A stretch of 64,000 bases of DNA. Origin: Minisyncoccota bacterium (GTDB taxonomy: Bacteria > Patescibacteriota > Minisyncoccia > Phycocordibacterales > UBA6065). Location: assembly GCA_035438745.1 (NCBI GenBank), contig DAORIX010000001.1:3075-67074 (forward strand). Direction: 5' to 3'. The notes beneath the pieces were generated by a model, which was given only the letters and a program-made list of their open reading frames with translations, made no database searches and was not told the origin of the DNA. This document shows positions 13,108 through 64,000 of the stretch, in pieces; position 1 is the stretch's first letter, and the number at the start of each line of letters is the position of its first letter. The translations under genes were made by a program, and so were the position numbers.

Positions 13108-13228
13108 ACTTCTTGTATCTCTATAAATACTGCTAATAATGTCTCATTATTATAGATGACACGTGAGCATATAACAATGTGCACAAATACACAGAAAACA
13201 TCCACCCGTTAAGGTGGATGTTTTCATG

Positions 13229-13584
13229 TTGTAAGCAAGCTTATAAGCCGAATTCTGTTCTTGTCGTAAAACAAGCGATAATTATTTATCTAGGATGTAC
13301 GTTGCCGTACACCTCAAGCGACTCTCCTCATGCACGAAGCATGAGGCACGGTCTTGCACTCAAGTAAGGGTTTTGCCGTTGCACCTCCTTTGTTACCAAA
13401 GGATCTCATCCCCGAAGGGATGCTGTTGTTCATTTCGAACACCAGCGTCTCTGTTCGCACCTCGAGTATTTCTCTCGATAGGTATTACCTACTACCCTGC
13501 TCCCGCTATTAAACGGGGAGTGTTCGGACTTTCCTCACCTCACATCTATTGCTAGATACGGGGCGCAATTATCAAGCTTACCTC
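13229..13584 (-). ncRNA. rnpB: RNase P RNA (rnpB), bacterial type; ends approximate
   Basis: Minus strand carries the P4 5' strand GAGGAAAGTCCGAAC and the P4 3' strand ACAGAATTCGGCTTATAAGC, plus GGTAACAAAGGAGGTG. P1 is GTAAGC/GCTTAC. A TATAAT -10 lies 7 nt upstream and a hairpin plus T-run terminator (13197..13224) downstream. The overlapping + ORFs 13179..13367 and 13295..13555 are spurious. Confidence 0.8.
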
Positions 13585-25548: not shown

Positions 25549-28086
25549 TTATTTTTGTGTCCACCCATCAGCCAAATAATCACTCAATTTTTTCCACTTC
25601 ACTTCCTTTTCTTCGCCATTTTTTACAACGACAACCTTTTCATTTCTACCTTTCTTTTCTTCACCAGAGACACGTTGTGTGCTACCTGTAGATGAAATAA
25701 TACGAGCCGCGTCTTCCATCTCTGCGCGCGCTTTTGCTTCATGAACATCCACCGTAGCTCCCAAAGAAGGGATAACACTAATAACATGAGCATTAATCGA
25801 TACAATAAGGTTTTTGAAAAGCAGAGTGCTCTCCTTTTTGTACTCAACGAGAGGGTCACGTTGACCATACGCTCTCAAATTTACTGAGCCACGCAAATAA
25901 TCCATAGCCTCAAGATGCTCCACCCACAACATATCTATAGTCTGCAAAAAAAGTGCTCGCACGTGTTTAACAAAAACATCACTGCCCATAGTTTTTTTCT
26001 TTTCCTCAATTTTTGAGAGAAAATCAGCGTCGTTAGGATCGAGAATACTGTCTAGCTCTGCGAGCACGTCAGCATCAGAACCAAGGAGCATTTTTGATCG
26101 ACGAGTATACACTGTTTTTCGATGTAAATTCATTACGTCGTCATATTCCAAAACATGTTTACGTGCATCAAAGTTGAAACCTTCGATACGATTCTGCGCC
26201 GTCTCAAGAGACCGGTTGATAATACCGTTCTGAATTGGTTCGTCTTCGGGAATACCAAAACGTCCCATCATTCTCTTGATCGTGTCCGAAGCAAAGACAC
26301 GCATAAGAGTATCCTCAAGGGACACAAAAAACTGCGTCGCACCCGGATCGCCCTGCCTACCAGCACGACCACGAAGCTGATTGTCGATACGCCTTGCCTC
26401 ATGTCGTTCGGTTCCTAGAACAAAAAGACCTCCCGCTTCTTTTACCTGCGCATATGCTTCTGGAGTTGCGGGATTACCTCCGAGTTTGATATCAACTCCT
26501 CGTCCCGCCATGTTCGTAGCAATAGTCACCGCACCGAATCGTCCCGCCTGAGCAATAATTTCACCCTCACGTTCATGATTTTTTGCGTTGAGTATTTCAT
26601 GCTTCACACCCTCAGTGCGCAAATACGCAGAGAGCAACTCGTTCTTTTCAATTGATGCTGTTCCAATCAAAACAGGCTGACCTTTTTGATTGAGCTTTTT
26701 TACAGCCTTTGCGATAGCTTTAAATTTACCAATTTCAGTTTGAAAAATAAGATCATCATGATCAATACGGGCAATGACTTTGTTAGTAGGAACAACAATA
26801 GTGGTGAGTCCATACACCTTAAAAAACTCTTCCGATGACGTCTCGGCTGTTCCCGTCATACCGGACAACTTTTTGTAGAGCCTAAAATAATTTTGATAGG
26901 TAATAGATGCAAACGTTCGCGTCTCCTGTTCTATACGTACACCCTCCTTTGCTTCAATAGCTTGATGAAGACCTTCTGACCATCTACGGCCAGGCTGCAT
27001 ACGTCCTGTAAATTCATCTACGATAACTACCTGCCCATCACGCACCACGTATTCTTTGTCTTTATGAAATAGTGCTTTTGCACGCACTGCGGTCTGTAGA
27101 TGGTGTACATATTTCACACCTCTATCAGTATAAATATTTTCAACTCCAAGAGCTTTTTCTGCAGCCTCAATACCTTTTGTAGTGAGAATAACTGATTTGT
27201 GTTTTTCTTCAACGGTATAGTGCTCATCTTTTTTGAGCGTTTCTGCAATACGCGCAAACATTGTATAAAAAGCTTCTGAATCACTTGCCGGCGCAGAAAT
27301 AATCAAAGGGGTACGTGCTTCGTCGATTAAAATAGAGTCTATTTCGTCAACAACGGCATAATTAAAAGGCCGCTGTCGTAAATCTTCCTTACGATAACAA
27401 ATATTGTCTCGAAGATAATCAAATCCAAACTCGCTGTTTGTACCGTAGGTAATATCAGCCTGATATGACTCTCGCCTGCTCACCGGTCGCAAAAACTCAT
27501 GCATCACCTTAAACGATCCCACTTCATCACGCGTCACATCGAGAGGATCACGTGACCCTTCTGTTGTTTCTGTTTTTTTACCATGAAGTGGATCATATAC
27601 GTATGATTCATTATGTCCCACAACACCGACAGAAAGACCGAGAAAATTGTATACCTGTCCCATCCACACGGCGTCTCTGCGAGAAAGATAATCGTTTACG
27701 GTAACAACATGAACACCGAGTCCTGTCAGAGCATTCAAGTACACAGGAAGCGTTGCCACAAGCGTCTTTCCTTCTCCTGTTCTCATTTCTGCAATACCCG
27801 CATGGTGAAGTATTGCTCCTCCGATAATCTGAACATCAAAATGTCGCTGACCGAGCGTTCTCTTTGACGCCTCCCTCACCACAGCGAAAGCGCGTGGCAA
27901 CAGGTCATCGAGAGATGTACCCGAAGCAAGAGCTTTTTTAAAAGAGGTGGTTTCCTCCCGAAGAGCACTATCAGACAATGCCGCTATCTCAGCTTCAAGA
28001 GCGTTCACACGCGGAACAAGGGCCTCATAAGGCTTGAGATTCCGTGCGTTTTGATCTCCAAATAGTTTCTTTAAGAATGAAGCCAT
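25549..28086 (-). CDS. secA: preprotein translocase ATPase SecA
   Basis: MASFLKKLFGD N-terminus, Walker A (MRTGEGKT), DEAD-like motor blocks, HWD/HSD scaffolds. Start at 28086 preferred over 28146; no C-terminal zinc finger. Confidence 0.9.
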   Translation of the reverse strand: MASFLKKLFGDQNARNLKPYEALVPRVNALEAEIAALSDSALREETTSFKKALASGTSLDDLLPRAFAVVREASKRTLGQRHFDVQIIGGAILHHAGIAEMRTGEGKTLVATLPVYLNALTGLGVHVVTVNDYLSRRDAVWMGQVYNFLGLSVGVVGHNESYVYDPLHGKKTETTEGSRDPLDVTRDEVGSFKVMHEFLRPVSRRESYQADITYGTNSEFGFDYLRDNICYRKEDLRQRPFNYAVVDEIDSILIDEARTPLIISAPASDSEAFYTMFARIAETLKKDEHYTVEEKHKSVILTTKGIEAAEKALGVENIYTDRGVKYVHHLQTAVRAKALFHKDKEYVVRDGQVVIVDEFTGRMQPGRRWSEGLHQAIEAKEGVRIEQETRTFASITYQNYFRLYKKLSGMTGTAETSSEEFFKVYGLTTIVVPTNKVIARIDHDDLIFQTEIGKFKAIAKAVKKLNQKGQPVLIGTASIEKNELLSAYLRTEGVKHEILNAKNHEREGEIIAQAGRFGAVTIATNMAGRGVDIKLGGNPATPEAYAQVKEAGGLFVLGTERHEARRIDNQLRGRAGRQGDPGATQFFVSLEDTLMRVFASDTIKRMMGRFGIPEDEPIQNGIINRSLETAQNRIEGFNFDARKHVLEYDDVMNLHRKTVYTRRSKMLLGSDADVLAELDSILDPNDADFLSKIEEKKKTMGSDVFVKHVRALFLQTIDMLWVEHLEAMDYLRGSVNLRAYGQRDPLVEYKKESTLLFKNLIVSINAHVISVIPSLGATVDVHEAKARAEMEDAARIISSTGSTQRVSGEEKKGRNEKVVVVKNGEEKEVKWKKLSDYLADGWTQK

Positions 28087-28163
28087 AAAAAGTGTATAGA
28101 TAGCAATTCTAGCATGTAGTACGCCTTGCGTACCACAAAAAAGCATGATGAATACCCGAGCGC

Positions 28164-29177
28164 TTAAACGAGTTCAACCTCACGTTCTATAGTGATACCT
28201 GTCGAATCATATACCTTTTTTTCAATAGCGCGTGCAAAAGCATCTATCTCGTGAGATGGTGTTTCTTTATGCGCAACAAGTACCAGTGGTTGTTTCTCAA
28301 ATAGTCGACACCGTCCAACCATATAGCCTTTCAAGTGAAGCCCCATATCGAGAATCCATGCGAGAGGAATCTTGTATTCGTTTTCTGACACAGAAAAAGC
28401 CGGAAGCTCTGGCCACAGAACCCTCAACTCATCGAGTTTGGATTTTGAAATAATTGGATTTTTCCAAAATGAACCTGCGGTACCCCACAGAGAAAGTTCG
28501 GGGAATTTCCCCTGACGAATACTAATTACCGCCTCACGAATCTCTCTAAGCGACGGACTAGTGTTTACTCCAAAAAAAGACTGTATGTCCTTATACGCAA
28601 GTCGTGGCGTAGGTGTGCGTGTAAGTCTATATGTAACTGAAAGAATAATCAGATGTTTATGCTCTTTCTTTTTAAAAATACTACTACGGTATCCGAATTC
28701 ACACTCAGAACAAGAAAGTGGTTTGACCTCACCAGAACGTGTATCGAGAACGCGCACAGAATCGATCACATCCTTTATCTCAACCCCATACGCACCTATG
28801 TTTTGTACCGGAGAAGCGCCCACCGTTCCTGGTATGAGCGAAAGATTCTCAAGTCCCCACAATCCATGCATAACAGAATCCTCAACAAACGCATCCCACT
28901 CTTCGCCCGCCTCGGCCGTTACAAAAACAAAAGACCCTTTTTCAGCATAAGAAATACCCTTAGTCCTCACACACATAACTAGACCATCAAAACCCGCATC
29001 CGAAAAAAGAACATTCGAACCACCACCTACTACAAAAAAAGGTATCTGCTGTTTTGTGGCAAAAGAAAGCGCTTTATGTAACTCATCCTCAGTTGTCGCC
29101 ACAGAAAAAAATCGTGCACTCCCTCCCGAACAAAATGTAGTGTACGGCGCGATTTTTACGTTCTCTTCGATAGTCAT
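28164..29177 (-). CDS. murB: UDP-N-acetylenolpyruvoylglucosamine reductase
   Basis: FAD-binding PCMH domain (FFVVGGGSNVLFSD) and MurB C-terminal domain. Confidence 0.85.
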   Translation of the reverse strand: MTIEENVKIAPYTTFCSGGSARFFSVATTEDELHKALSFATKQQIPFFVVGGGSNVLFSDAGFDGLVMCVRTKGISYAEKGSFVFVTAEAGEEWDAFVEDSVMHGLWGLENLSLIPGTVGASPVQNIGAYGVEIKDVIDSVRVLDTRSGEVKPLSCSECEFGYRSSIFKKKEHKHLIILSVTYRLTRTPTPRLAYKDIQSFFGVNTSPSLREIREAVISIRQGKFPELSLWGTAGSFWKNPIISKSKLDELRVLWPELPAFSVSENEYKIPLAWILDMGLHLKGYMVGRCRLFEKQPLVLVAHKETPSHEIDAFARAIEKKVYDSTGITIEREVELV

Positions 29178-29253
29178 ATAGGTGCCATTGTACGTAAAAT
29201 AAAAGCACCAGACAATATTATGTTGGTGCTTTTACTACTACCTCAACAAAGAC

Positions 29254-31455
29254 CTAAGGATTTCTGCCCGCCTCAATTTCTTTTATGTAATACTCACCTT
29301 GCTCTTTGAATGTAGGATCTTTCGCAATAACTTCTCTGATGGTAGCAACCGCACTTCTACGATCACCAGAAGCGAGAAATGTTGCTGCATACTGAAGTCT
29401 GTATTGATTGTTTGATGGGTCTGTATCTAGTCGCTTCTTCCACAAAGCAAGCGCTCGTGACCACTGTTTTGTATCAGTATACGCCCTGATGAGACGATCG
29501 TCCGTAACGAGTGTAGTGCCGTACTTTGACTCAAGCGTTTCTTCTGCTTTTTGCACGTCACCAGAATAAATTGTAGCAATAACATAGTACATAAACGCAT
29601 CTTCATTTCGCACCTCGATCTCGTACGCACGCTTAAACACCTCGAGCGCTTTCGCATAATCTTGCTTCTGCAAATAGAGATTGCCCAACTGATAGAGAAT
29701 ACTCTGTTTGTTTGGAGAAAGTTCGGATGCGCGCAGTGTGTACTTGAGAGCATCGTCAAAAAGACCGTAGTAAGAATAAAATGTTCCTGTAAAAAGCTGA
29801 TAGCGGGCATCGTCAGGAGTATGTTCAAGTTGTTTTGCGAGTTCCGCCTTACCGAGCTCAAAGAAATCCTGCTTCACATTAATCGGAGCAGTTGATGGAT
29901 TGATTTGGCTCACCGCCTCAATAATTCTCTCTCTAATTTCTGACTGACCAAGAGACTCTCTCTTGAGTGCGTCCTTGAAATCCACCACCGCAAGAGCGCC
30001 CATTTGTCCCGCATCCGTACCTAACTTTCTCAAAGCCTCAATAAGAGACCGAGATGCCGCATACGCCTTGAAGTTAACGAGATAAAGGATGACCACGAGC
30101 ATAACAACACAGGCCGGTAAAATGATTTGCTTAAAATCATCATCTCCCACTTCGGTGTCTACGCGTGAAAGTTTGTGAGAAGTTACCGCTACACGCCCGT
30201 GTATATATGCGAGCATAGTAACAAAGATCATGTAGCTCGTGAGATTGTCGAATACAAAAAAGTTATGTATGAAGTACGCAACAAAAAGTCCAGACATCAC
30301 ACTTTTTTCTGTAAATGAAAATGTTTCCTCGGAAGACTTCCACAAACTCCACAGTGCGCTACCGAACAAAAAGAGATACGCAAGGAGACCGAAAATACCT
30401 CCTGCTATAAGCCAATCAAATACAACATTGTGAGTACGATCAAACCACTGTTCCTGAGCATACATACCCGGATTGTAGTATTTGTTAAAAACATAGCTGA
30501 AATTTTCCTGACCCCATCCTAGAATCGGGCGCTCCTTGAAACCTTGCCATGCCATATCCCACACCATAAAACGCGACTTAGTAGTTCCATCATTAAGCGA
30601 GATCGAGGCAAAGCGCGAGAGAACAGGACTTTCGCGAACAAAAGAGGTATTTTTAATGGCCAAGAAACCAAGAACCGTAGCAATACCCAAGCCTAAAATA
30701 ACTCCACAACTAATACGAAGCACTTTATTTTTTCTTTCAAAAATGAGCACGAGAAGAGTCGTCACGCCTATACCCCCAATGAGACCCAAAATCGCACCTC
30801 GAGTTGCGGTGTGATAGAGAATAAATACAAAGAAAAGAGCGAGCACGCTGTATGCATAACCCCATTTCTTTTTCATATCTGTAAAAGAACGCGCCGCAAA
30901 CATTCCTGCAATAAAAATGTTGAAAATCATGTACACCGCGAGATACGTTGCATTGCCGAACGTCGCATCAACACGCACACCTCCTTGATTGATAGTGAAT
31001 TTTCCAAGAAGTTGAGCCACGCCATACAATCCAATACAGAGAGTTGTTCCGAGATATACATTGAGTAGTCGATCCCAAAGTGTTCTTGAAAGCAAAACAC
31101 ATCCAGCCACTACGAAATATACATAGAGATGAAGTATGGTGATGAACCCTTCCATACGCTCATAGTTTGACCAGAATGCCTTGAATGCATTCGGCGCAAA
31201 AGAGTCAGCAATACCAATAATGAGCACGAAGGCAGTAAACGCCCACAAAATGAGAGATTTTTTCGGGCGATACGTGACATCTCTGAGTGCGAGCGCTAAC
31301 CACGCCACGCCAATGATCTCAACAATAATTCTAAATAAAAAATTCTTTCCGGTAATAAAAGGAAAAAACAAACTTCCTGTAACTACAAAAGGAATAAAAG
31401 GAACGGTGAATAAACCGCCCAGAATTATAAAACGCAGAATTTTCTTGAGATTCAT
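29254..31455 (-). CDS. Wzy_C (O-antigen ligase/polymerase-like) polytopic membrane domain fused to C-terminal TPR repeats (paralog 2)
   Basis: About 12 TM helices with Wzy_C-like periplasmic loop (RTHNVVFDWLIAGGIFG) then a 280 aa TPR array (AIEALRKLG..., ALEVFKRAYEIEVRNEDAF...). Confidence 0.75.
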   Translation of the reverse strand: MNLKKILRFIILGGLFTVPFIPFVVTGSLFFPFITGKNFLFRIIVEIIGVAWLALALRDVTYRPKKSLILWAFTAFVLIIGIADSFAPNAFKAFWSNYERMEGFITILHLYVYFVVAGCVLLSRTLWDRLLNVYLGTTLCIGLYGVAQLLGKFTINQGGVRVDATFGNATYLAVYMIFNIFIAGMFAARSFTDMKKKWGYAYSVLALFFVFILYHTATRGAILGLIGGIGVTTLLVLIFERKNKVLRISCGVILGLGIATVLGFLAIKNTSFVRESPVLSRFASISLNDGTTKSRFMVWDMAWQGFKERPILGWGQENFSYVFNKYYNPGMYAQEQWFDRTHNVVFDWLIAGGIFGLLAYLFLFGSALWSLWKSSEETFSFTEKSVMSGLFVAYFIHNFFVFDNLTSYMIFVTMLAYIHGRVAVTSHKLSRVDTEVGDDDFKQIILPACVVMLVVILYLVNFKAYAASRSLIEALRKLGTDAGQMGALAVVDFKDALKRESLGQSEIRERIIEAVSQINPSTAPINVKQDFFELGKAELAKQLEHTPDDARYQLFTGTFYSYYGLFDDALKYTLRASELSPNKQSILYQLGNLYLQKQDYAKALEVFKRAYEIEVRNEDAFMYYVIATIYSGDVQKAEETLESKYGTTLVTDDRLIRAYTDTKQWSRALALWKKRLDTDPSNNQYRLQYAATFLASGDRRSAVATIREVIAKDPTFKEQGEYYIKEIEAGRNP

Positions 31456-32421: not shown

Positions 32422-32670
32422 ATGGTAGAAGAAATAAAACCCAACGCCGTCTATACGACAGAGGAAACAAGACAAGTCCTCCGTATTAGTGACAGCACCA
32501 TTAAGAGACTCCTCAAAAAAGGACTCCTGCGTGCAAACAAAGTTGGAGGACAATACAGAATCATGGGAAAAGAAATTTTACGAGTGGTCTCCCCTGATCT
32601 CGAGAAAGAAGCCGTAAAGTCATACCTCTCTCTCAAGAAAAAAGTAATAAAAAAAATAAACAAATGGTAA
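32422..32670 (+). CDS. excisionase/MerR-like helix-turn-helix DNA-binding protein (HTH_17-type)
   Basis: [38 protein letters not shown] matches the excisionase-family HTH. Stop overlaps the gmd start. An alternative start at 32398 lies inside the promoter spacer. Confidence 0.6.
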
Positions 32671-33761
32671 AATCTAATCCTATGGCCAAAAAACAAAAAA
32701 CAAAAACTAAGAAAGCTCTCATTACCGGAATTACAGGCCAAGACGGTTCTTACCTTGCTGAACTTCTCCTTGAGAAAGGTTATGAAGTCTATGGACTCAT
32801 CAGACGCGCCTCAACATTCAATACCTCTAGAATAGATCACCTTTTCCAAGATCCCCACACAAAAAACAAAAAACTCATACTCTTGTATGGAGACCTCTCT
32901 GACTCGAGCAACCTCTCGCGAATTATTGAAAAAGTAAAGCCAGATGAAATCTACAACCTAGGCGCACAAAGCCATGTCCGCGTCTCTTTTGATATGCCTG
33001 AGTACACCGCTGATGTTGATGCGGTTGGCACATTGCGACTCCTTGATGCAATACGAGAAACAGGAGTAAAAACAAAATTCTACCAAGCATCATCCTCAGA
33101 AATGTATGGAAAAGTTATGGAGGTACCTCAGACAGAAACAACCCCCTTCTACCCCCGATCACCCTATGCAGTTGCAAAAGTATTTGCTTATTGGATTACA
33201 AAAAACTACCGAGAGGCGTACAACCTATTTGCAGTAAATGGAATTCTCTTTAACCACGAATCTCCTCGTCGAGGAAAAACTTTTGTAACGAAAAAAATCA
33301 CTCGCGGACTATCGCGCATCAAGCTTGGTATTGATGAAAAGATGTATCTCGGAAATCTCGACGCGAAGCGTGACTGGGGTTACACAAAAGACTATGTATA
33401 TGGAATGTGGCTCACCCTTCAACAAAAAAAACCGGATGACTACGTACTCGCCACAGGAGAAACACATTCTGTACGAGAGTTTATAGAAGAATCTGCGAAA
33501 TGCCTCGATATCGATCTCGTCTGGAAAGGAAAAGGAGTTGATGAAAAAGGAATTGATAAGAGAACAGGAAAAACAATCATAGAGATTGACCCTGCGTATT
33601 TTCGCCCAGCTGAAGTAGACCTCCTTATTGGAGATGCATCAAAAGCCAAAAAAGAACTGGGTTGGAAACCTACCGTTGATTTTAAAGGTCTCGTAAAAAT
33701 GATGTGTGAATACGACCTTGAGGAAGAAACTCAAAACAAACAAAATCTCGCACGAAAATAA
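32664..33761 (+). CDS. gmd: GDP-mannose 4,6-dehydratase
   Basis: [33 protein letters not shown]-terminus, catalytic SSSEMYG...Y..AK, GME-unrelated long loop; start 32664 or 32682. Confidence 0.9.
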
Positions 33762-33762
33762 C

Positions 33763-34692
33763 ATGAATAAAAATTCAAAAATTTATATAGCCGGCCATTT
33801 AGGACTTGTAGGATCAGCTATTTTGAGAAAGCTCAATAAAGAAGGCTACACAAACCTCATTACAAAATCTCGTAAAGAGCTTGACCTTACTGATCAAAAA
33901 GCAGTGAAAGATTTTTTTGAAAAAACAAAGCCCGAATATGTATTTCTTGCCGCGGCAAAGGTGGGTGGAATTATGGCAAACAAAACCTACCCTGGAGAAT
34001 TTATTTCCGAAAATCTCGACATCCAAAATAATATAATAAAAAACTCCTACATCCACGGAGTAAAGAAACTGTTGTTTCTTGGAAGTTCGTGTATATACCC
34101 AAAACTAGCTACCCAGCCAATAAAGGAGGAGTATTTTATGACGGGTCCCCTTGAGCCAACAAATGAGGCGTATGCGATTGCAAAAATTGCAGGAATTTCA
34201 ATGTGCCAGTCATACCGAAAACAATATGGAGCTGATTTCATATCACTCATGCCGACAAATCTCTATGGACCGGGCGACAACTTCACGAACGAAAGAGGTC
34301 ATGTGATTCCGGCACTCATTAGAAAATTTCATGATGCAAAAGCCAAAAATCTTGACGAGATATCAGCATGGGGCACAGGATCAGCAAAACGAGAATTTTT
34401 ACACTCGGATGATTTAGCTGATGCGTGTGTGTTCCTCATGAAGAATTACTCCTCGGGAGATATTATAAACGTTGGTACAGGCGAAGACGTCACTATCAAA
34501 GAACTCACCGAAAAAATTAGCAAGATCGTTGGCTTTAAAGGAAAAATTGTCTGGGACACCACAAAACCAGACGGTGCTCCCCGAAGACTACTTGATGTAG
34601 AAAAACTTCACACCCTAGGTTGGAAACACCACATAGAACTCGAAAAAGGTCTTGAAGAAACCTATGAGTGGTTCAAAAAAAATGTCATCTAA
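33763..34692 (+). CDS. fcl: GDP-L-fucose synthase family (GDP-4-keto-6-deoxy-D-mannose 3,5-epimerase/4-reductase; Fcl/WcaG, or a ColC-type paralog)
   Basis: [19 protein letters not shown] Rossmann start, [18 protein letters not shown] blocks; start at MNKNSK (33763) abuts the gmd stop. Confidence 0.8.
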
Positions 34693-34696
34693 AAAA

Positions 34697-35911
34697 ATGA
34701 AAAAAGGTAAAAAAAATACAGCAGTACCCTACAAAGTACCCCTCATGAAAAATGCTTTTATTGAGGAAAAGAGCGTCAGGGCAAAACTCTCACAATTTGT
34801 TCTCACTGCCCCACGCCTCAGTATGGATTTACAATGCGCTCAGTTTGAAAAAACGTTCGCGAAAAAACAGGGTCGAAAATACGCGATTTTATTCAACAGC
34901 GGAGGAAGCGCAAACCTCGCAATGATACAAGCGCTCAAAAACTTAGGCGCACTCAAGGACAATGACAAAGTAGGCTTCTCTGCTGTTACCTGGTCAACAA
35001 ATGTTATGCCCATCCTACAAATGGGACTTGGTGCCGTTCCTATCGACTGTGACCCCACCACACTCAACTCAATGAGCCATTGTGCCTTACCCCGACTTGA
35101 ACAAGAAAAGTGTAAAGCCTTTTTTATAACCAACGTACTAGGTTTTTCTGGTGATCTCGATGTAATCGAAAAAGAATGTGCAAAAAAAGGAATTATAGTA
35201 CTCGAGGACAACTGTGAATCACTTGGCACCGTGCTCCATACAGGAAAGACGGGTAATTTTAGTCTTGCATCAAGTTTTTCTTTTTTTGTTGCCCACCATA
35301 TGTCAACAATTGAAGGAGGCATGGTGTGTACAGACGATCACGATTTTGCAGAAATGCTCAAAATAGTTCGAGCTAATGGTTGGGATAGAAATCTCCACCC
35401 AAAGAGACAAAAACACTGGCGCAAGAAACATGAAGTAGAATCTTCTTTTCACGCAAAATACACTTTTTATGACCTCGGCTTTAACTTACGTCCTACTGAA
35501 ATAACTGGTTTTATTGGACTCAATCAACTTCCCCACCTCGATAAAACTATCAAAATTCGTGAAAAGAATTTCAAAAAAATATACGCACAAATATTAAAAA
35601 ATGATGATTTTCTAAAAATCTCACACGATCACCTCAAAACCATTTCTGCTTTTGCAATACCTTTCATATGTAAAACACCGGAGCTCAGAAAAAAATATAT
35701 CAAAATATTCAACGATGCAGGAGTTGAGATTAGACCAATGATTGCTGGAAATATGCAAAAGCAACCATTCTCGAAAAAATACACGTCAAAAACATTTGAT
35801 CTTCCTGGTGCTGATGTATTGCACGACAATGCTTTTTATTGTGGAAATTGTCCCGACTACACGCCTGCGGAGATAGAAATCATTTTAAATTGTATAATAA
35901 AAGGAAAATAA
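34697..35911 (+). CDS. DegT/DnrJ/EryC1-family PLP enzyme with His replacing the Schiff-base Lys: ColD/E1-like sugar 3-dehydratase candidate
   Basis: Fold-type I aminotransferase blocks (FEKTFA..KYAILFNSGGSANL, GDLD..IVLEDNCESLG). Where the family has SFxxxK....GEGG the sequence reads SFFVAHHMSTIEGG. Confidence 0.6.
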   Translation: MKKGKKNTAVPYKVPLMKNAFIEEKSVRAKLSQFVLTAPRLSMDLQCAQFEKTFAKKQGRKYAILFNSGGSANLAMIQALKNLGALKDNDKVGFSAVTWSTNVMPILQMGLGAVPIDCDPTTLNSMSHCALPRLEQEKCKAFFITNVLGFSGDLDVIEKECAKKGIIVLEDNCESLGTVLHTGKTGNFSLASSFSFFVAHHMSTIEGGMVCTDDHDFAEMLKIVRANGWDRNLHPKRQKHWRKKHEVESSFHAKYTFYDLGFNLRPTEITGFIGLNQLPHLDKTIKIREKNFKKIYAQILKNDDFLKISHDHLKTISAFAIPFICKTPELRKKYIKIFNDAGVEIRPMIAGNMQKQPFSKKYTSKTFDLPGADVLHDNAFYCGNCPDYTPAEIEIILNCIIKGK

Positions 35912-35912
35912 T

Positions 35913-36737
35913 ATGGAAACTCCCGTAACAATACTCCGCCCAAAAAAAACCATCACCCTAAACGACCTCAAAGAACTCTGGCGCTACCGTGAGCTTCTTT
36001 ATTTTTTTACATGGCGCGATCTCAAAGTTCGATATAAACAAACCCTTATTGGTGCACTGTGGGCTATACTTCAACCTCTCGTTACGATGGTCATCTTTAC
36101 TGTATTTTTTGGTAAGTTGGCACAAATGCCATCTGACGGAGTTCCGTATCCAATCTTTGTTTACGTCGGTCTCCTTTTCTGGCAATTTTTTTCGAGCGCT
36201 CTCTCAGAAACATCTAATGTTCTTATTTCAAACCAAGCAATCATAACCAAAGTTTACTTTCCTCGCCTCATCTTGCCGTTATCGTCAGTACTTACCAAAT
36301 TTGTTGATTTTGCAATTGCATCTCTCATCCTTATTGGAATGATGGTCTATTACGGATATACGCCCCACCTTCTAGGGATTTTCATCATTCCTCTCCTTCT
36401 CCTCATTACCTTCATGGCTGCTGTTGGTAGTGGTCTATGTTTAGCATCAGTAAACGTTAAGTACCGAGATGTTAGATATGCTCTGCCCTTTTTTATACAA
36501 ATACTCCTTTTCCTTACCCCAGTTATTTATCCCGCATCAATTGCAGGCAACTATTCATGGCTCCTGGCGCTTAATCCAATGACGGGGGTAATTCAATCTG
36601 CTCGAGCGGCTCTCCTCGGAACAACACCAATCAACTGGCTCCTTCTCGCTATTTCATCCTTGGCGTGTTTGTGTCTTCTTATTATTGGTGGTATCTATTT
36701 CAAAAAAATAGAACGCTATTTTGCAGATATTTTATAA
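35913..36737 (+). CDS. wzm: ABC-2 type polysaccharide export permease (Wzm/TagG/KpsM family)
   Basis: 274 aa, 6 TM, N-terminal RELLYFFTWRDLKVRYKQTLIGALWAILQP signature of Wzm permeases. Confidence 0.8.
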   Translation: METPVTILRPKKTITLNDLKELWRYRELLYFFTWRDLKVRYKQTLIGALWAILQPLVTMVIFTVFFGKLAQMPSDGVPYPIFVYVGLLFWQFFSSALSETSNVLISNQAIITKVYFPRLILPLSSVLTKFVDFAIASLILIGMMVYYGYTPHLLGIFIIPLLLLITFMAAVGSGLCLASVNVKYRDVRYALPFFIQILLFLTPVIYPASIAGNYSWLLALNPMTGVIQSARAALLGTTPINWLLLAISSLACLCLLIIGGIYFKKIERYFADIL

Positions 36738-36741
36738 AAAA

Positions 36742-38001
36742 ATGGAACCCATAATTGAAGTAAAAAATGTCGGTAAAAAATACAACATAAAGCACTACCA
36801 AGGTGGCTATGTTGCGTTGCGTGATGTGATCATGAATATAGTCAAAAACCCTTTTCGCTTTGCAAAAGAAAAAGCAAAAGCAGTCACAGGAATAGGAACA
36901 AAGGAAGAGTTCTGGGCGCTCAAAGAAGCAAGCTTTAACATTTTCCAAGGAGAAGTGGTTGGAATCATCGGAAGAAATGGGGCCGGAAAATCAACTCTCC
37001 TCAAAATACTGACTGGCATTACACCTCCTACAACAGGAGAAATAAAAATGCGCGGTAGAGTCGCTTCCCTTCTTGAAGTCGGTACGGGGTTCCATCCAGA
37101 ACTTACTGGCCGAGAAAACATATTCCTCAACGGTGCAATTCTCGGAATGAAAAAAAGTGAAATCGCAAAAAACTTTGACTCGATTGTTGCGTTTGCTGAA
37201 ATAGAAAAATTCCTCGATACCCCAGTAAAATACTACTCAAGTGGAATGTATGTCCGTCTCGCCTTTTCAGTAGCCGCGCACATGGAACCAGACATACTCC
37301 TCGTGGATGAAGTACTCGCTGTGGGTGATGCAGAATTCCAAAAAAAGTGCCTTGGAAAAATGGAAGAGGTTACCAAGAAACAAGGCCGTACCATACTCTT
37401 TGTGAGTCACAACATGGCAGCAATTCAAAATCTCTGTAAAAAATGCATCCTCTTAGAAAAAGGAAAAATCAAAGCGGTTGGTGACACAGAAGACATTGTA
37501 AACCTCTACCTCCACAATTCCGAGTCAGAGGCAACAGAAAAAAAATGGGAGGGAGACAAGCGTCCAGGAAATGATGTTGTACGACTAAACCATGTTCGTC
37601 TTGTTGATGAAAATAAAGAAACCACGAGCTTTGTCTACTCAAATAAAAAATTTGGATTAGAAATATCCTACGAGGTTCTCAAATCTGGTTTTGCACCTCT
37701 TCCCAATGTTCACTTTTTCACAAATAAAGGGGAATATGCATTTATTAGCCACGCTGACGTAAAAGAAGAAAATGATAAAGTAGGAAAACACACGAAAACT
37801 GTGTGGGTCCCCGGAAATCTCCTTAATGAAGGTACCTACTCAATCGGTGTTGCTCTTTCAACTATGATTCCGCTCAACATACACCTCTATGAAAGAGAGC
37901 TTATTGTGTTCCAAGTGCTTGAGGATATTCACAGTGCAAAGAAACACGACTTCAATGTGCGTATACCGGGAGTTGTCCGCCCTCGACTAGTATGGGAATA
38001 A
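36742..38001 (+). CDS. wzt: polysaccharide ABC exporter ATP-binding protein with C-terminal carbohydrate-binding (Wzt_C-like) domain
   Basis: Walker A GRNGAGKST, signature YSSGM, Walker B LLVDEVLAVGD; an extra about 170 aa beta-rich C-terminal domain as in Wzt. Confidence 0.8.
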   Translation: MEPIIEVKNVGKKYNIKHYQGGYVALRDVIMNIVKNPFRFAKEKAKAVTGIGTKEEFWALKEASFNIFQGEVVGIIGRNGAGKSTLLKILTGITPPTTGEIKMRGRVASLLEVGTGFHPELTGRENIFLNGAILGMKKSEIAKNFDSIVAFAEIEKFLDTPVKYYSSGMYVRLAFSVAAHMEPDILLVDEVLAVGDAEFQKKCLGKMEEVTKKQGRTILFVSHNMAAIQNLCKKCILLEKGKIKAVGDTEDIVNLYLHNSESEATEKKWEGDKRPGNDVVRLNHVRLVDENKETTSFVYSNKKFGLEISYEVLKSGFAPLPNVHFFTNKGEYAFISHADVKEENDKVGKHTKTVWVPGNLLNEGTYSIGVALSTMIPLNIHLYERELIVFQVLEDIHSAKKHDFNVRIPGVVRPRLVWE

Positions 38002-60788: not shown

Positions 60789-62015
60789 TTATTTTTCGCC
60801 GAAAGACTTATCGAAAACACCTTCCCTCATCTGCTCAACAACAACACTCCAGTCATATCGATCAAGCACCATGTGCATAGCATTCTCTACAATCTCATTT
60901 CGCAATAAAACATCGCGCATATACATTTCAACTTTTCGAGCAATATCTTTTGGATCATGAACATCACACAACAAACCTGTTTCTTTATTCACCAAAAAAT
61001 CAACAATACCTCCCACAGGCGTAGCGATCACAGGAATACCCGCAGCCATTGCTTCAATAAAAGAATTTCCAAAACCTTCGGATAGAGAAGGGCGCACAAA
61101 TACATCAGAAATTTTTAAGTACTTTGGCATTTCCTTGTGTGATACATACCCTAGAAAATGCACTCGTGACATGACCCCTAAGTCTTGTGCTTGTTTTTTG
61201 AGCGAAGCCTCTTCGTATCCAGTACCCAAAACAAGGAGCTTAACATACGGTGGCAAATGGACGAGGGATGCAACAATGTCCCCTACCGCATTTTTTACCA
61301 CAAGCCGAGACGTAGTAATAATAAAAATATCATGCGGTTCTTTTCCTAAAGACACGCGTACGTTTTCAAGCTCACCCTCATCAAATGATTGTCTGAAATG
61401 AGAGGTGTCGACACCGTTAGGCACGACAACTACCGGACACGTTGCTCCTTGAGATGATGCAAACGAAGCAAGGTAACGCGATATCGCTTGAATGCAATCC
61501 GCTTTCTTAAAAATCATTTTAAAAAGCGGACGAACAAAACGCACTCTTTTTTCTATGTATTCAAACGGATCACCCTCCTGAAGAGTAAGAATAAACGGCG
61601 TAGACATATTAAAGAGCTTAAAAAACAGAGCCCCGAATCCTGAATAATTCGCCATCATTGCCCACACAGCGTCATAGTGTTTTTTGCGATTCAAGCCATG
61701 AGCAACATACGCAGACAAAAACGGATAGAGATATTTATTGAGATGCAAATACCACGGTAAAGAATCCGCAGAAGCACGTTGATTTCCCACAAAACCAATG
61801 CGATACACATTCACATTGCCTATGCGTTCAAAACGAGGTAGTTTTTTATCAATACGCAAAGCCACCAAGTCAAACTCAATGTCTTGGGAGGATATCCTGT
61901 CAGTGATTTCTTTAATAGCAATTTCTGCCCCGCCAATAAAGCGAGGGTAGTAGACGAAAGAAAAGATGAGTATTTTCTTAGGCTTAATCGTGTCTGTTCC
62001 GGGTATAGTAGTCAT
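60789..62015 (-). CDS. GT4 glycosyltransferase
   Basis: SEGFGNSFIEAMAAGIPVIATPVGG block. Confidence 0.75.
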   Translation of the reverse strand: MTTIPGTDTIKPKKILIFSFVYYPRFIGGAEIAIKEITDRISSQDIEFDLVALRIDKKLPRFERIGNVNVYRIGFVGNQRASADSLPWYLHLNKYLYPFLSAYVAHGLNRKKHYDAVWAMMANYSGFGALFFKLFNMSTPFILTLQEGDPFEYIEKRVRFVRPLFKMIFKKADCIQAISRYLASFASSQGATCPVVVVPNGVDTSHFRQSFDEGELENVRVSLGKEPHDIFIITTSRLVVKNAVGDIVASLVHLPPYVKLLVLGTGYEEASLKKQAQDLGVMSRVHFLGYVSHKEMPKYLKISDVFVRPSLSEGFGNSFIEAMAAGIPVIATPVGGIVDFLVNKETGLLCDVHDPKDIARKVEMYMRDVLLRNEIVENAMHMVLDRYDWSVVVEQMREGVFDKSFGEK

Positions 62016-62029
62016 AGCCTAGATCTATA

Positions 62030-62149
62030 TTACTCTATAATCTCAAAATCATCTCCTGGGTTACGAGCACTTTTTTGAACAGCAACAACACCTACGTACG
62101 ACAGTCCCGCAATGAGAGCGAGCGCAACGGAACCAAAAAGAAATATCAT
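62030..62149 (-). CDS. 39-aa single-TM small protein (candidate, not in the ORF track)
   Basis: ATG at 62149, MIFLFGSVALALIAGLSYVGVVAVQKSARNPGDDFEIIE; sits between the VirD4-like gene and the GT4 gene. Confidence 0.25.
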   Translation of the reverse strand: MIFLFGSVALALIAGLSYVGVVAVQKSARNPGDDFEIIE

Positions 62150-62154
62150 AGAAA

Positions 62155-63993
62155 TTATTGATTCATATCGAGAATCTTTTTCAAAACATCCTCCGGTACT
62201 TCTTGTTTTGATGATGGTGGAGGGGTAGGTATTTGCTCCTTTGGTTGTGGTTTCGGAATATTTTTTTCACTCGTTGCTGAAATAGCAGAAGTATCAGTTT
62301 TTTCTACCTTAGGAACAACAGAAGCGAGAGCCTGCCGTAAATCGTTAACATTTTTTTGGCTAGGAACTTTTTTTGTATTGTGCTCCAAACCAGAAGTAAT
62401 TGGGGGTTTTGGTTTTAATTCCGTGAGGGAAACAGTCTTTGTAAGGGGAACAAAATCATCGTTATCCTGTGTCTGTAAAACAGGCTTATCGAAAGCTGGA
62501 GGAGCGGTCCTCGGTTCTGTTCTTTTTTGAGCAAAATCAGCAGGAGGGTTGTGAGGATTTCGTTGTGGCTGAGTATCGAGAGGACGAGATGGACGAGTAT
62601 CACGATTAAAAGAGCCTCCGTCCTGTCTACGCGTATCCCTCTGTGGTTCTGAGCCATGTTCTCTACGAGGAAAGGCCTCCTGTCGTTTCTCTACTCTTTG
62701 CTGAGGTGGGTGGCTTTCTTTGTCTACTCCGGCTTGCTTGCGAACTTCCTCTTCAACTCCCGCCCGCTTTGAGGCGTAGGTAAGTCGTGACTGTTCAATT
62801 ATTTTTTCATACTGGGAGACGCTCGGTAATTGGATAGGAGGTAACGTGGTTGCAGAAAAAGGCTGTGAAGATACACCATCAATCATGAGCTTCAAATAAA
62901 TTTGATAGATGCCCAAATTCACAATATCCTCAGCGGTAAATGTTGGCGCAAATTCCTTTTCGAGTACCTCAGCATCAAAAGCTCCCACACGAAAAACGAT
63001 CATCGTTCCAACGTTTCCAAACACGGCAGCACGAACCTCATCTGACATTTGTTCAATATACTGATGAGCGATAGTAAGATTAAGTTTATACTTTCGAGCT
63101 TCAGACAAAATATCTGCAAAAGATTCATTAGCAAAAGACTGGAACTCATCCACATACAAATAAAAATTGGGTAACTTTTTAAGCGCTGCGTCTGAAGCAT
63201 CGGCTCGAGACATTGCGCCGAGATAGATTTTGGTGATAAGCATTGAACCGAGGAGGTTTGCATTCTGCTCTCCCACCCGACCCTTTGAAAGGTTGATAAT
63301 GAGAATCTTCTTCTCATCCATCATTTTTCTAATATCAAATGTTGATTTTGGCTGACCGATAATATTACGAACAAGAGGGTTTGAAATAAACTGACCAATC
63401 TTGTTTTGTATCGCAGCACCAGCCTCTTGCATATACCTCTCACCATATTTAGCAAACTCATCTACCCAAAAAGCCTTCACTGATGGATCAGTGATATTGT
63501 CCACAACTTTTTTACGATACTCCTTGTCGGCAAGCATTCTGTTTACGCCGATGAGTGTTGAGTCTGGATACTCAAGAAGCGCAAGAAGAATGTTGTTGAG
63601 AATATATTCCATACGCGCTGACCACGCATCTACCCATATTTTCTTGAACGCAGACATGAGACCAGAGACAACAAGGTGGCGTTTGTCAGCACCGACATCT
63701 TCCATCACATTAAATGAAATAGGGTGCTCAATATCAAAAGGAGCAAAATACAAAACATCTTTAATACGATGTTCCGGCACATACTGGAGGAGAAGGTCAG
63801 CAGTTTTGCCGTGAGGGTCAATAAAAGCGAGGCCGTTACCATTTTGAATATCCTGCACGGCCATATTTTCAAGAACAGTAGACTTACCCATACCCGTTTT
63901 ACCAATGATGTACGTGTGCCTACTCCTGTCTTTTGACTTAATACCAAAAGGTATTTTTTTATCTCGCGCATCAGTCTGCGCGAAGTATGTCAC
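62155..63993 (-). CDS. VirD4/TraD/TraG-like type IV secretion coupling-protein ATPase (FtsK/HerA superfamily) with disordered C-terminal tail
   Basis: Walker A IIGKTGMGKST, Walker B FYLYVDEFQSF, TIAHQY motif; about 170 aa P/Q/R/E-rich low-complexity C-terminus. Confidence 0.6.
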   Translation of the reverse strand: MTYFAQTDARDKKIPFGIKSKDRSRHTYIIGKTGMGKSTVLENMAVQDIQNGNGLAFIDPHGKTADLLLQYVPEHRIKDVLYFAPFDIEHPISFNVMEDVGADKRHLVVSGLMSAFKKIWVDAWSARMEYILNNILLALLEYPDSTLIGVNRMLADKEYRKKVVDNITDPSVKAFWVDEFAKYGERYMQEAGAAIQNKIGQFISNPLVRNIIGQPKSTFDIRKMMDEKKILIINLSKGRVGEQNANLLGSMLITKIYLGAMSRADASDAALKKLPNFYLYVDEFQSFANESFADILSEARKYKLNLTIAHQYIEQMSDEVRAAVFGNVGTMIVFRVGAFDAEVLEKEFAPTFTAEDIVNLGIYQIYLKLMIDGVSSQPFSATTLPPIQLPSVSQYEKIIEQSRLTYASKRAGVEEEVRKQAGVDKESHPPQQRVEKRQEAFPRREHGSEPQRDTRRQDGGSFNRDTRPSRPLDTQPQRNPHNPPADFAQKRTEPRTAPPAFDKPVLQTQDNDDFVPLTKTVSLTELKPKPPITSGLEHNTKKVPSQKNVNDLRQALASVVPKVEKTDTSAISATSEKNIPKPQPKEQIPTPPPSSKQEVPEDVLKKILDMNQ

Positions 63994-64000
63994 CTTATCT

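Follow-up and report, generated by a model that had tools for sequence, protein, structure and literature searches.

A short VirB4/VirD4-type ATPase, a 39-residue membrane microprotein and a glycan island on a Minisyncoccota chromosome

Introduction

The window analysed here, a 64,000-nucleotide stretch of a Minisyncoccota bacterium (assembly GCA_035438745.1, contig DAORIX010000001.1, positions 3,075 to 67,074 of the forward strand), closes with the gene of a P-loop ATPase. This gene is followed on the same strand by an open reading frame (ORF) for a membrane protein of 39 amino acids (aa) and by the first glycosyltransferase gene of a glycan island (Table 1). The ATPase is a highly conserved chromosomal core gene. 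Its identity as a VirB4/VirD4-superfamily ATPase, and its separation from the conjugative coupling proteins that sit in type IV secretion system (T4SS) loci, can be stated with high confidence. The best explanation of the locus, held with a modest degree of preference, is that the protein is the 'short' Paceibacteria form of an ATPase carried on chromosomes across the candidate phyla radiation (CPR), with tethering to the membrane in trans as part of that explanation.

A considerable part of bacterial diversity belongs to the CPR, or Patescibacteria, whose host-dependent lifestyle is believed to be based on their envelope machines. In the passages of Quinonero-Coronel et al. (2025, Microb Genom, PMC12102498) on VirD4-type type IV coupling protein (T4CP) homologues, 5,713 of these are counted in 2,918 of 3,035 Patescibacteria genomes (~96%), about two copies per genome, with only 148 near virB4. 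The virB4 genes are fewer (2,474), and those of Paceibacteria are located near dnaA/dnaN. The window ATPase, which is positive with T4CP profile hidden Markov models (HMMs) and lies far from virB4, is one of the orphan T4CP homologues described there. Its class is already published and annotated at NCBI, either as a T4CP homologue or as a 'type IV secretion system DNA-binding domain-containing protein'. The same passages of PMC12102498 make no mention of a short soluble form, of tail motifs, of a partner with a transmembrane (TM) helix and a DFEIIE motif, of backbone synteny or of a VirB4-like N-terminal domain in long forms. In the literature searched, nothing was found on the short Paceibacteria form, its tail motifs, the family of TM + DFEIIE microproteins and lamin-tail domain (LTD) protein tails, the domain DUF8128 and its VirB4-like fold, a link between CPR T4CP homologues and LTD proteins, or an account of the glycan adjacency as an island in a conserved backbone.

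A near-universal T4SS-type ATPase that is more conserved than glycolytic enzymes and is encoded apart from T4SS clusters represents an unexplained core function. The short form, its three tail peptides, the candidate DFEIIE partner motif and the hint of a VirB4-like N-terminus in longer relatives offer handles on it.

Table 1. Features of the ATPase locus and of the glycan island and backbone in the window
Feature	Position	Strand	Remarks
39-aa microprotein gene	62030..62149	-	ORF call; hypothetical protein in public annotations
Microprotein TM helix, aa 1-23	62081..62149	-	Kyte-Doolittle 19-residue mean 2.2
Microprotein C-terminal motif DDFEIIE, aa 33-39	62033..62053	-	Common to the ends of LTD-PKD membrane proteins elsewhere
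ATPase gene	62155..64000	-	5'-truncated by window edge; residues 8-621 and stop inside window
ATPase core, aa 8-430	62731..63999	-	VirB4/VirD4-type nucleotide-binding domain; without transmembrane segment
Walker A GKTGMGKST, aa 40-48	63877..63903	-	
All-helical insertion, aa ~111-235	63316..63690	-	AlphaFold2 helices; between Walker A and Walker B
Walker B FYLYVDEF, aa 286-293	63142..63165	-	
TIAHQY block, aa 316-321	63058..63075	-	Aligned with TrwB ...GLQS... motif
Disordered Pro-rich tail, aa 431-621	62158..62730	-	AlphaFold2 predicted local distance difference test (pLDDT) <50 over most
Tail motif 1, KTVSLTELK	62413..62439	-	Family consensus ..SLxxLK
Tail motif 2, KKVPSQKNVNDLRQALASV	62317..62373	-	Consensus K.P[ST]..N...LR.AL; predicted helix aa 555-568
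Tail motif 3, EVPEDVLKKIL, near C-terminus	62170..62202	-	Predicted helix aa 610-617
First GT4 glycosyltransferase of glycan island	60789..62015	-	No terminator between it and 39-aa ORF
Wzt-type ABC exporter ATPase with Wzt_C domain	36721-38001	+	
Conserved backbone, far side of island	25549..31455	-	Wzy_C-TPR + MurB + SecA
Wzy_C-TPR	29254-31455	-	
MurB	28164-29177	-	
SecA	25549-28146	-	

The ATPase

The ORF visible in the window (62155..63993, minus strand) runs past the window end. The GTG at 63993 encodes an internal residue, Val10, and is not the start codon; the true ATG lies 20 nt past window position 64000, as seen in a public contig of the Joint Genome Institute (L001) that matches the window for 11,846 nt without a mismatch and reaches 689 nt further. 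The complete protein has 621 aa (P0001, 100% identical). On the 5' side of the gene there is a strong terminator hairpin (a perfect 13-14-bp stem) together with a TATAAT -10 box (L001 600-660).

The Walker A and Walker B motifs and the TIAHQY block, first pointed out in a reading of the letters of the window alone (below, the sequence-only reading), are all present, and all three are invariant among 58 homologues (A318, H319, Q320 and Y321 in the TIAHQY block). The helical insertion occupies the position of the all-alpha domain of T4CPs, and 345 residues align to TrwB. There is no segment of TM strength, the maximum 19-residue hydropathy being 1.26, and only 39 aa precede Walker A. Intact as a P-loop ATPase and very strongly constrained, the protein has a core of T4CP/VirB4 type.

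Profile comparisons point to the coupling proteins. The Pfam families TrwB_AAD_bind, T4SS-DNA_transf, DUF87 and TraG-D_C all score above their curated cut-offs, but weakly (30.3 bits against a cut-off of 20.5 for PF10412, 29.5 against 20.1 for PF02534 and 22.9 against 22 for PF12696), and VirD4/TraD is preferred to VirB4 by profile HMMs. Scores with the NCBIfam equivalogs for TraD and VirD4 are far under their cut-offs (52 bits vs 366 for the T4CP models), and the weak match to NCBIfam CedD does not extend beyond the P-loop region (29 bits vs a cut-off of 600; E 4.5e-7). Searches of PDB sequences, with the single sequence or with a profile, gave only P-loop-level matches to TrwB, to which the ATPase is ~15% identical. 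No FtsK_SpoIIIE or gamma-domain match was found with Pfam.

In structural comparison the highest scores were obtained with the VirB4 C-terminal domain (27.4), DptH (26.7) and TrwB (26.1), followed by DotL (22.1), HerA (22.0) and Cag-beta (21.3), and then by TcpA (17.8), EccC (17.0) and FtsK (16.9). Foldseek results were consistent with these scores; the top match was HerA-NurA, yet HerA TM-scores were below those of TrwB. From the structural scores and Foldseek the ATPase therefore belongs to the VirB4/VirD4 branch rather than with FtsK/SpoIIIE proper, the other grouping that the sequence-only reading had allowed for.

The protein shares with T4CPs (TrwB of R388, VirD4, TraD, DotL, Cag-beta) the helical insertion between Walker A and B as well as scores above the cut-offs of PF10412 and PF02534. 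It differs from them in lacking the N-terminal transmembrane domain that anchors the hexamer, in having no relaxase or T4SS neighbours, and in being a chromosomal core gene of very high sequence conservation; the initial description of it as a VirD4/TraD-like coupling protein does not hold in the canonical sense. Relative to VirB4/TrwK, the fold of the C-terminal ATPase domain is shared, whereas the VirB4 N-terminal domain is wholly lost, VirB3, VirB6 and VirB8 are absent from the neighbours, and the HMMs lean to VirD4/TraD. FtsK/SpoIIIE and HerA belong with the ATPase to one superfamily of additional-strand catalytic-E (ASCE) hexameric translocases, and DUF87 is above its cut-off, but neither the membrane nor the gamma domain of FtsK is present, and no clear HerA N-terminal barrel and no NurA or other nuclease partner were seen. 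The structural scores of FtsK and HerA are below those of VirB4 and TrwB, and the FtsK motor is not the closest relative.

Distribution and Long Forms

At least 8,000 close homologues were detected in a word-indexed search, the named ones nearly all from Paceibacterota, Parcubacteria, Taylorbacteria and similar groups. They are 60-67% identical to the window ATPase in full length and about 80% identical in the core. An exhaustive search of representatives returned 22,490 clusters at E<=1e-3, of which 6,088 also reached E<=1e-30. Gene conservation was compared in 79 genome loci, which had been picked by similarity to the ATPase, a choice that has to be kept in mind with the following median pairwise identities: 72% for the ATPase core, 67% for enolase, 59% for pyruvate kinase, 56% for RsmI, 53% for SecD, 50% for DUF4015 and 44% for the MurD-like protein.

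About one quarter of the top 150 representatives carry an N-terminal extension of ~380 aa that consists of one TM helix and DUF8128 (PF26449). Named matches of this long form are from Saccharimonadia, Microgenomates, Berkelbacteria and Dojkabacteria; Southlakia and Nanosynbacter have it as well. The window ATPase starts exactly at the boundary after DUF8128, and is therefore a clean N-terminal truncation in which the protein's own membrane anchor has been lost. A separate DUF8128 gene was not detected when the N-termini of six long forms were compared by BLASTP with every ORF in 81 loci, nor by TBLASTN against the window. One predicted model hints that the fold of DUF8128 resembles the N-terminal domain of VirB4; this has no sequence support, and a PDB sequence search with DUF8128 gave nothing meaningful. 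As modelled, the long forms would combine a VirB4-like architecture with a VirD4-like ATPase sequence.

Long forms occupy housekeeping contexts in 80 metagenome loci, where T4SS genes were again not seen. In one context DprA, TopA and a sigma/HARE-HTH protein precede the ATPase, which is followed by FtsQ-like, FtsW and MraY genes. In the other, Tgt precedes the ATPase, SecF and SecD follow it, and two paralogues are often found a few kb apart. Pairs of DUF8128-ATPase paralogues separated by 0.5-3 kb were seen in L086, L089, L090, L094, L099, L100, L108, L109 and L121. One member has ~830-850 aa, no long tail and ~42% identity to the window core; the other is mostly 930-1150 aa long (826 aa in L121), with a long tail and ~52% identity. 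These pairs match the figure of about two T4CP homologues per genome in the passages cited above (PMC12102498).

The C-Terminal Tail

Proline accounts for 14.7% of the last ~190 aa of the ATPase, in which K, Q, T, D, R and E are also abundant. The disorder attributed to this region on first reading was borne out, but it is longer than the about 170 aa then given and is not featureless low complexity. Tail length varies from 177 to 364 aa among relatives, and the sequence is hypervariable apart from three conserved short motifs (Table 1). In motif 2, L561 and L565 are invariant. Motif 3 follows the family consensus E[VI]PE[DE]VL[KR]K[IL]L; the layout of a disordered linker ending in this short helix (EVPEDVLKKIL) is reminiscent of the FtsZ C-terminal peptide.

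T4CPs can bind adaptors through a long C-terminal tail and a terminal peptide, as in F TraD-TraM and DotL-IcmSW. By analogy, the flexible extension of the ATPase with its conserved terminal peptide may resemble these adaptor-binding systems. A few relatives have additional modules in the tail. For example, an S1 domain (an oligonucleotide/oligosaccharide-binding, or OB, fold) lies within the disordered tail of P0129, and a CxxC...C zinc-ribbon-like motif is found there in P0178 and P0199. Such modules may hint at nucleic-acid binding.

The Microprotein and LTD-PKD Proteins

The 39-aa ORF starts 5 nt past the ATPase stop and ends 14 nt ahead of the GT4 start. The exact protein is present on 19 contigs of strains ~99.5% identical to the window. 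The protein begins MIFLFGSV..., and K26 and R29 come after the helix; by the positive-inside rule its tail is therefore predicted to be cytoplasmic. Strains differ only by conservative A/V/I changes within the TM helix and show no variation in the tail.

Comparable proteins occur in the same position elsewhere. At six loci an ORF of 39-54 aa lies directly 3' of the ATPase, each with one TM helix and an acidic-hydrophobic C-terminal peptide (DDFEIIE, DEYEIIEEIN, FDIEIIE, FDIKIIE, DDFEIID and NDFEIIDLKKQD). At ~22 other loci the slot is filled by a protein of ~480 aa with a signal peptide, an LTD, a PKD domain and a C-terminal TM helix, mostly with a terminus of DFEIIE type. The specificity of this arrangement was assessed with a signature made up of a TM helix and [FYI][ET]I[ITEL][EDQ] near the C-terminus, small ORFs being taken in all six frames. 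The signature was present in 5 of 15,858 small ORFs (81 loci), and all five start between -7 and +122 nt from the ATPase stop on the same strand. For ORFs of at least 60 aa it was present in 8 of the 79 genes directly following the ATPase (the '+1' genes) and in 1 of 1,229 others, this one being another LTD protein three genes downstream.

On these sequence comparisons the 39-aa ORF is a genuine microprotein gene. The likelihood that it is a chance ORF in an intergenic spacer is very small: it is very short, lacks a Shine-Dalgarno sequence and has no match in Pfam, NCBIfam or PADLOC, but its motif and position are specific to the slot after the ATPase, the same type of tail is found on LTD-PKD proteins, and its strain variants differ conservatively in the TM helix only. 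Of the two roles first suggested for it, pilin or anchor-like partner, the second stands. A type IV pilin was rejected because there is no prepilin N_methyl motif (G-F-T-L-I-E), and the protein has a single TM helix with a predicted cytoplasmic acidic tail.

When the ATPase cores are arranged in a neighbour-joining tree, the mini form turns up in at least four separate positions, beside lineages with LTD and the motif. This scatter suggests repeated loss of the ectodomain with retention of anchor and tail. In two clades the C-terminal motif of the ATPase differs (LERMMRV... and ...KPGQxVKF), and the LTD partner there is without DFEIIE. The joint change is consistent with co-evolution of the two termini, or with that of a shared partner.

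Proposed Mechanism

The ATPase would act as a ring-shaped (hexameric), ATP-driven motor for translocation or remodelling; homology is what suggests its oligomeric state, its ATPase activity and its substrate. Recruitment to the membrane in trans is proposed because the N-terminal anchor of its relatives, one TM helix and DUF8128, has been lost. The membrane partner would be the microprotein or an LTD-PKD protein, acting through its cytoplasmic DFEIIE tail, and a tail motif or the helical domain of the ATPase may bind this peptide. The channel or role served could be an origin-proximal CPR T4SS reached in trans, or DNA or protein handling tied to envelope growth. Tethering in trans through a DFEIIE partner is tentative, and its chances are put clearly below even.

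Several observations count against such tethering. An adjacent LTD or mini partner is found in only about 25-30 of the 79 loci, and loci without one still keep the ATPase tail motif. No convincing fusion of the ATPase to a C-terminal TM helix or DFEIIE was seen among 270 family members (P0225 seems chimeric). The co-change amounts to only two phylogenetically independent events and has an exception in L007; a few LTD partners of the L007 type are without DFEIIE despite an intact ATPase tail motif. Adjacency and two lineage-level co-changes thus give weak support for an interaction between ATPase and microprotein, confounded by phylogeny. Finally, passages of PMC12102498 report the Saccharibacteria homologue to be non-essential for epibiotic growth, which is awkward beside the extreme conservation of the gene.

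A bolder reading, to which only a low probability is given, is that the orphan T4CP family, across the CPR, forms a distinct third lineage of T4SS-type motors in which a VirD4-like ATPase is fused to a VirB4-like N-terminal domain. In Paceibacteria the motor would have lost its own anchor and be held at the membrane by DFEIIE-tailed single-pass adaptors of a new class, either a microprotein of 39-54 aa alone or the tail of an LTD-PKD receptor. With the receptor, a ligand-binding protein outside the cell would be wired to a motor in the cytoplasm. By analogy with the LTD domains that accompany extracellular nucleases, the external LTD protein could possibly bind DNA. If this reading were true, it would mean an undescribed uptake or secretion module in nucleotide-scavenging bacteria.

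An analogy may also be drawn with the archaeal Ced/Ted systems for DNA import, in which a VirB4/HerA-like ATPase works with very small membrane proteins. The likeness would lie in a T4SS-type ATPase beside tiny single-pass membrane proteins. The locus differs in having no polytopic CedA-like channel gene near the ATPase and in its CedD score far under the cut-off, and DNA import would be an extrapolation from that analogy only.

Gene Neighbourhood

Among the window genes examined, which are housekeeping or glycan-locus genes, no relaxase or VirB gene was found, in agreement with the sequence-only reading. That reading held that the window edge prevents a decision, which is no longer so: contigs of the same species (strains ~99.5% identical) show the sequence past position 64000, and no VirB4, VirB6, T4SS-type (VirB2) pilin or relaxase gene occurs there. 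None of these four was found within 10 kb of the ATPase in 79 related genomes either, and a profile search with filters off detected no second VirB4/VirD4-like ATPase over the same range. A Pfam scan of 10 of 46 large unclustered ORFs gave no T4SS or relaxase domain, the proteins being mostly metabolic, surface and sensor proteins. In these surroundings the ATPase belongs neither to a conjugative element nor to a cluster of T4SS genes.

The genes beyond position 64000, with strands given in the ATPase orientation, are MraY-like (-), NlpC/P60-like (-), ATP-grasp (-) and RsmI (+), then a 66-68-aa two-TM protein (+) and a DUF4015 putative glycoside hydrolase (+). Between DUF4015 and the ATPase lie two small ORFs of 75 and 67 aa, followed by the terminator hairpin and TATAAT box. 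These two ORFs (L001 96-323 and 390-593; also L164 7556-8053) have no family match and no counterpart in other genera, and are conserved only among the ~99.5%-identical strains. DUF4015 occurs no more than five genes upstream of the ATPase in 51 of 69 loci, and a MurD-like gene or RsmI in 34 of 69. The gene immediately upstream was considered as a conserved partner and rejected, since the ORFs in that position ('-1') are mostly unrelated or spurious and the conserved neighbour is DUF4015.

Two further associations were seen at other loci. A type IV pilin-like gene (Pfam N_methyl, GFTLIELLVVIAIIGIL) is found just upstream of the ATPase in L026, L040, L045, L051, L073 and L079; it is absent from the window's species. 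SecD/SecF genes lie near the ATPase in three Paceibacteria loci (L030, L038 and L066; upstream, same strand) and in other CPR classes (L086-L121; convergent, downstream). Their recurrent proximity may reflect ancestral synteny.

The Glycan Island and the Conserved Backbone

The ATPase, the 39-aa ORF and the GT4 gene are on one strand, set 5 and 14 nt apart without a terminator, and are therefore likely to be co-transcribed. In 65 of 76 loci glycan genes lie no more than four genes downstream of the ATPase, mostly on its strand and separated by short gaps. In L016, L018 and L024, however, orthologues of Wzy_C-TPR, MurB and SecA come directly after the ATPase, as do those of Wzy_C-TPR and MurB in L021, whereas in the window a glycan region of ~30 kb (31.5-62.0 kb) separates the ATPase from this block. 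The glycan locus is therefore a variable island at a conserved chromosomal site.

Transcription of the island runs both ways, and its products include GtrA and PMT_2-type transferases in addition to the Wzt-type exporter ATPase. The intervals 32664-33761 (+) and 34652-35911 (+) go with a GDP-mannose 4,6-dehydratase and a DegT aminotransferase as further products. The exporter, the dehydratase and the aminotransferase together indicate an ABC-transporter-dependent polysaccharide pathway. Because the island is variable, has genes on both strands and brings Wzt, GtrA and PMT_2-type proteins of its own, mechanistic coupling between ATPase and glycan genes is unnecessary. The link is positional, and the adjacency can be set aside as a false lead: it marks a variable island at a conserved site and is not evidence for a glycan-coupled appendage.

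Alternative Functions of the ATPase

A bona fide coupling protein of a chromosomal CPR T4SS of the mating-pair-formation FATA kind (MPF-FATA-like), encoded apart from virB4, is unlikely but deserves serious consideration. T4CP genes are often distant from virB4, the Southlakia T4SS cluster has no recognisable coupling protein (PMC10633639; also passages of PMC12102498), and the ATPase scores above the cut-offs of Pfam T4CP models. Its fold equals that of TrwB, DotL and Cag-beta, and the tail with its terminal peptide may be likened to those of adaptor-binding T4CPs. Against this, there is no N-terminal membrane domain for docking on a T4SS channel, and the NCBIfam T4CP equivalog scores are far under their cut-offs. 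The N-terminal domain of the long-form relatives is, in the predicted model, VirB4-like and not VirD4-like. The passages of PMC12102498 add that the virB4 of Paceibacteria is placed away from the ATPase, near dnaA/dnaN, that T4CP homologues outnumber virB4 genes and occur in more genomes than these, and that Southlakia can do without its homologue but not without the T4SS; because of this last result exaptation 'cannot be ruled out' by the authors.

It is improbable that the ATPase is an FtsK-like DNA pump of the division apparatus or envelope, which its tail motifs would bring to the membrane or septum. Such a pump would suit a core gene of extreme conservation with cell-wall and division neighbours (MurD-like, MurB and MraY-like here; FtsQ, FtsW, MraY and DprA-TopA by the long forms), as would the S1 domain in the tail of one relative and the zinc ribbon in two. 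A disordered linker with a terminal peptide is a layout also used by division proteins, and the tail may be compared with it. The ATPase, however, has neither an FtsK_SpoIIIE or gamma-domain Pfam match nor TM helices, and DNA binding by it is a supposition only.

A single surface-appendage or glycoprotein export system made up of the ATPase, the microprotein and the glycan genes, the coupled system that the sequence-only reading raised, is weakened to the point of being quite improbable. The frequent closeness of glycan genes downstream, the tight terminator-free packing in the window and the surface location of the LTD-PKD partner would fit it. These are outweighed by the four loci in which the ATPase abuts Wzy_C-TPR and MurB and which show the island to be variable, by the bidirectional transcription of the island, and by the presence within it of GtrA, PMT_2-type transferases and a separate ABC exporter ATPase, Wzt. 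Moreover, the LTD protein carries an ordinary signal peptide, and long-form relatives in other classes do not adjoin glycan genes.

A role as a HerA-type helicase in DNA repair or in defence against phages is hardly credible, since DUF87 above its cut-off, the HerA-NurA top match of Foldseek and weak PADLOC matches to mad8 (2e-14) and HerA (3e-11) are set against HerA TM-scores under that of TrwB, the lack of a nuclease, Sir2, NurA or Dnd partner adjoining the ATPase in all 79 loci, and a universal, syntenic and highly conserved gene in place of a patchy defence island. Defence as a function was rejected, the matches being at superfamily level only and partner genes missing.

Apart from these genes, the window contains a bacterial class A RNase P RNA at 13228-13584 (-), with a score of 116 bits (gathering score 100). 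Its gene sits between those of a TPR protein and a ribonucleotide reductase.

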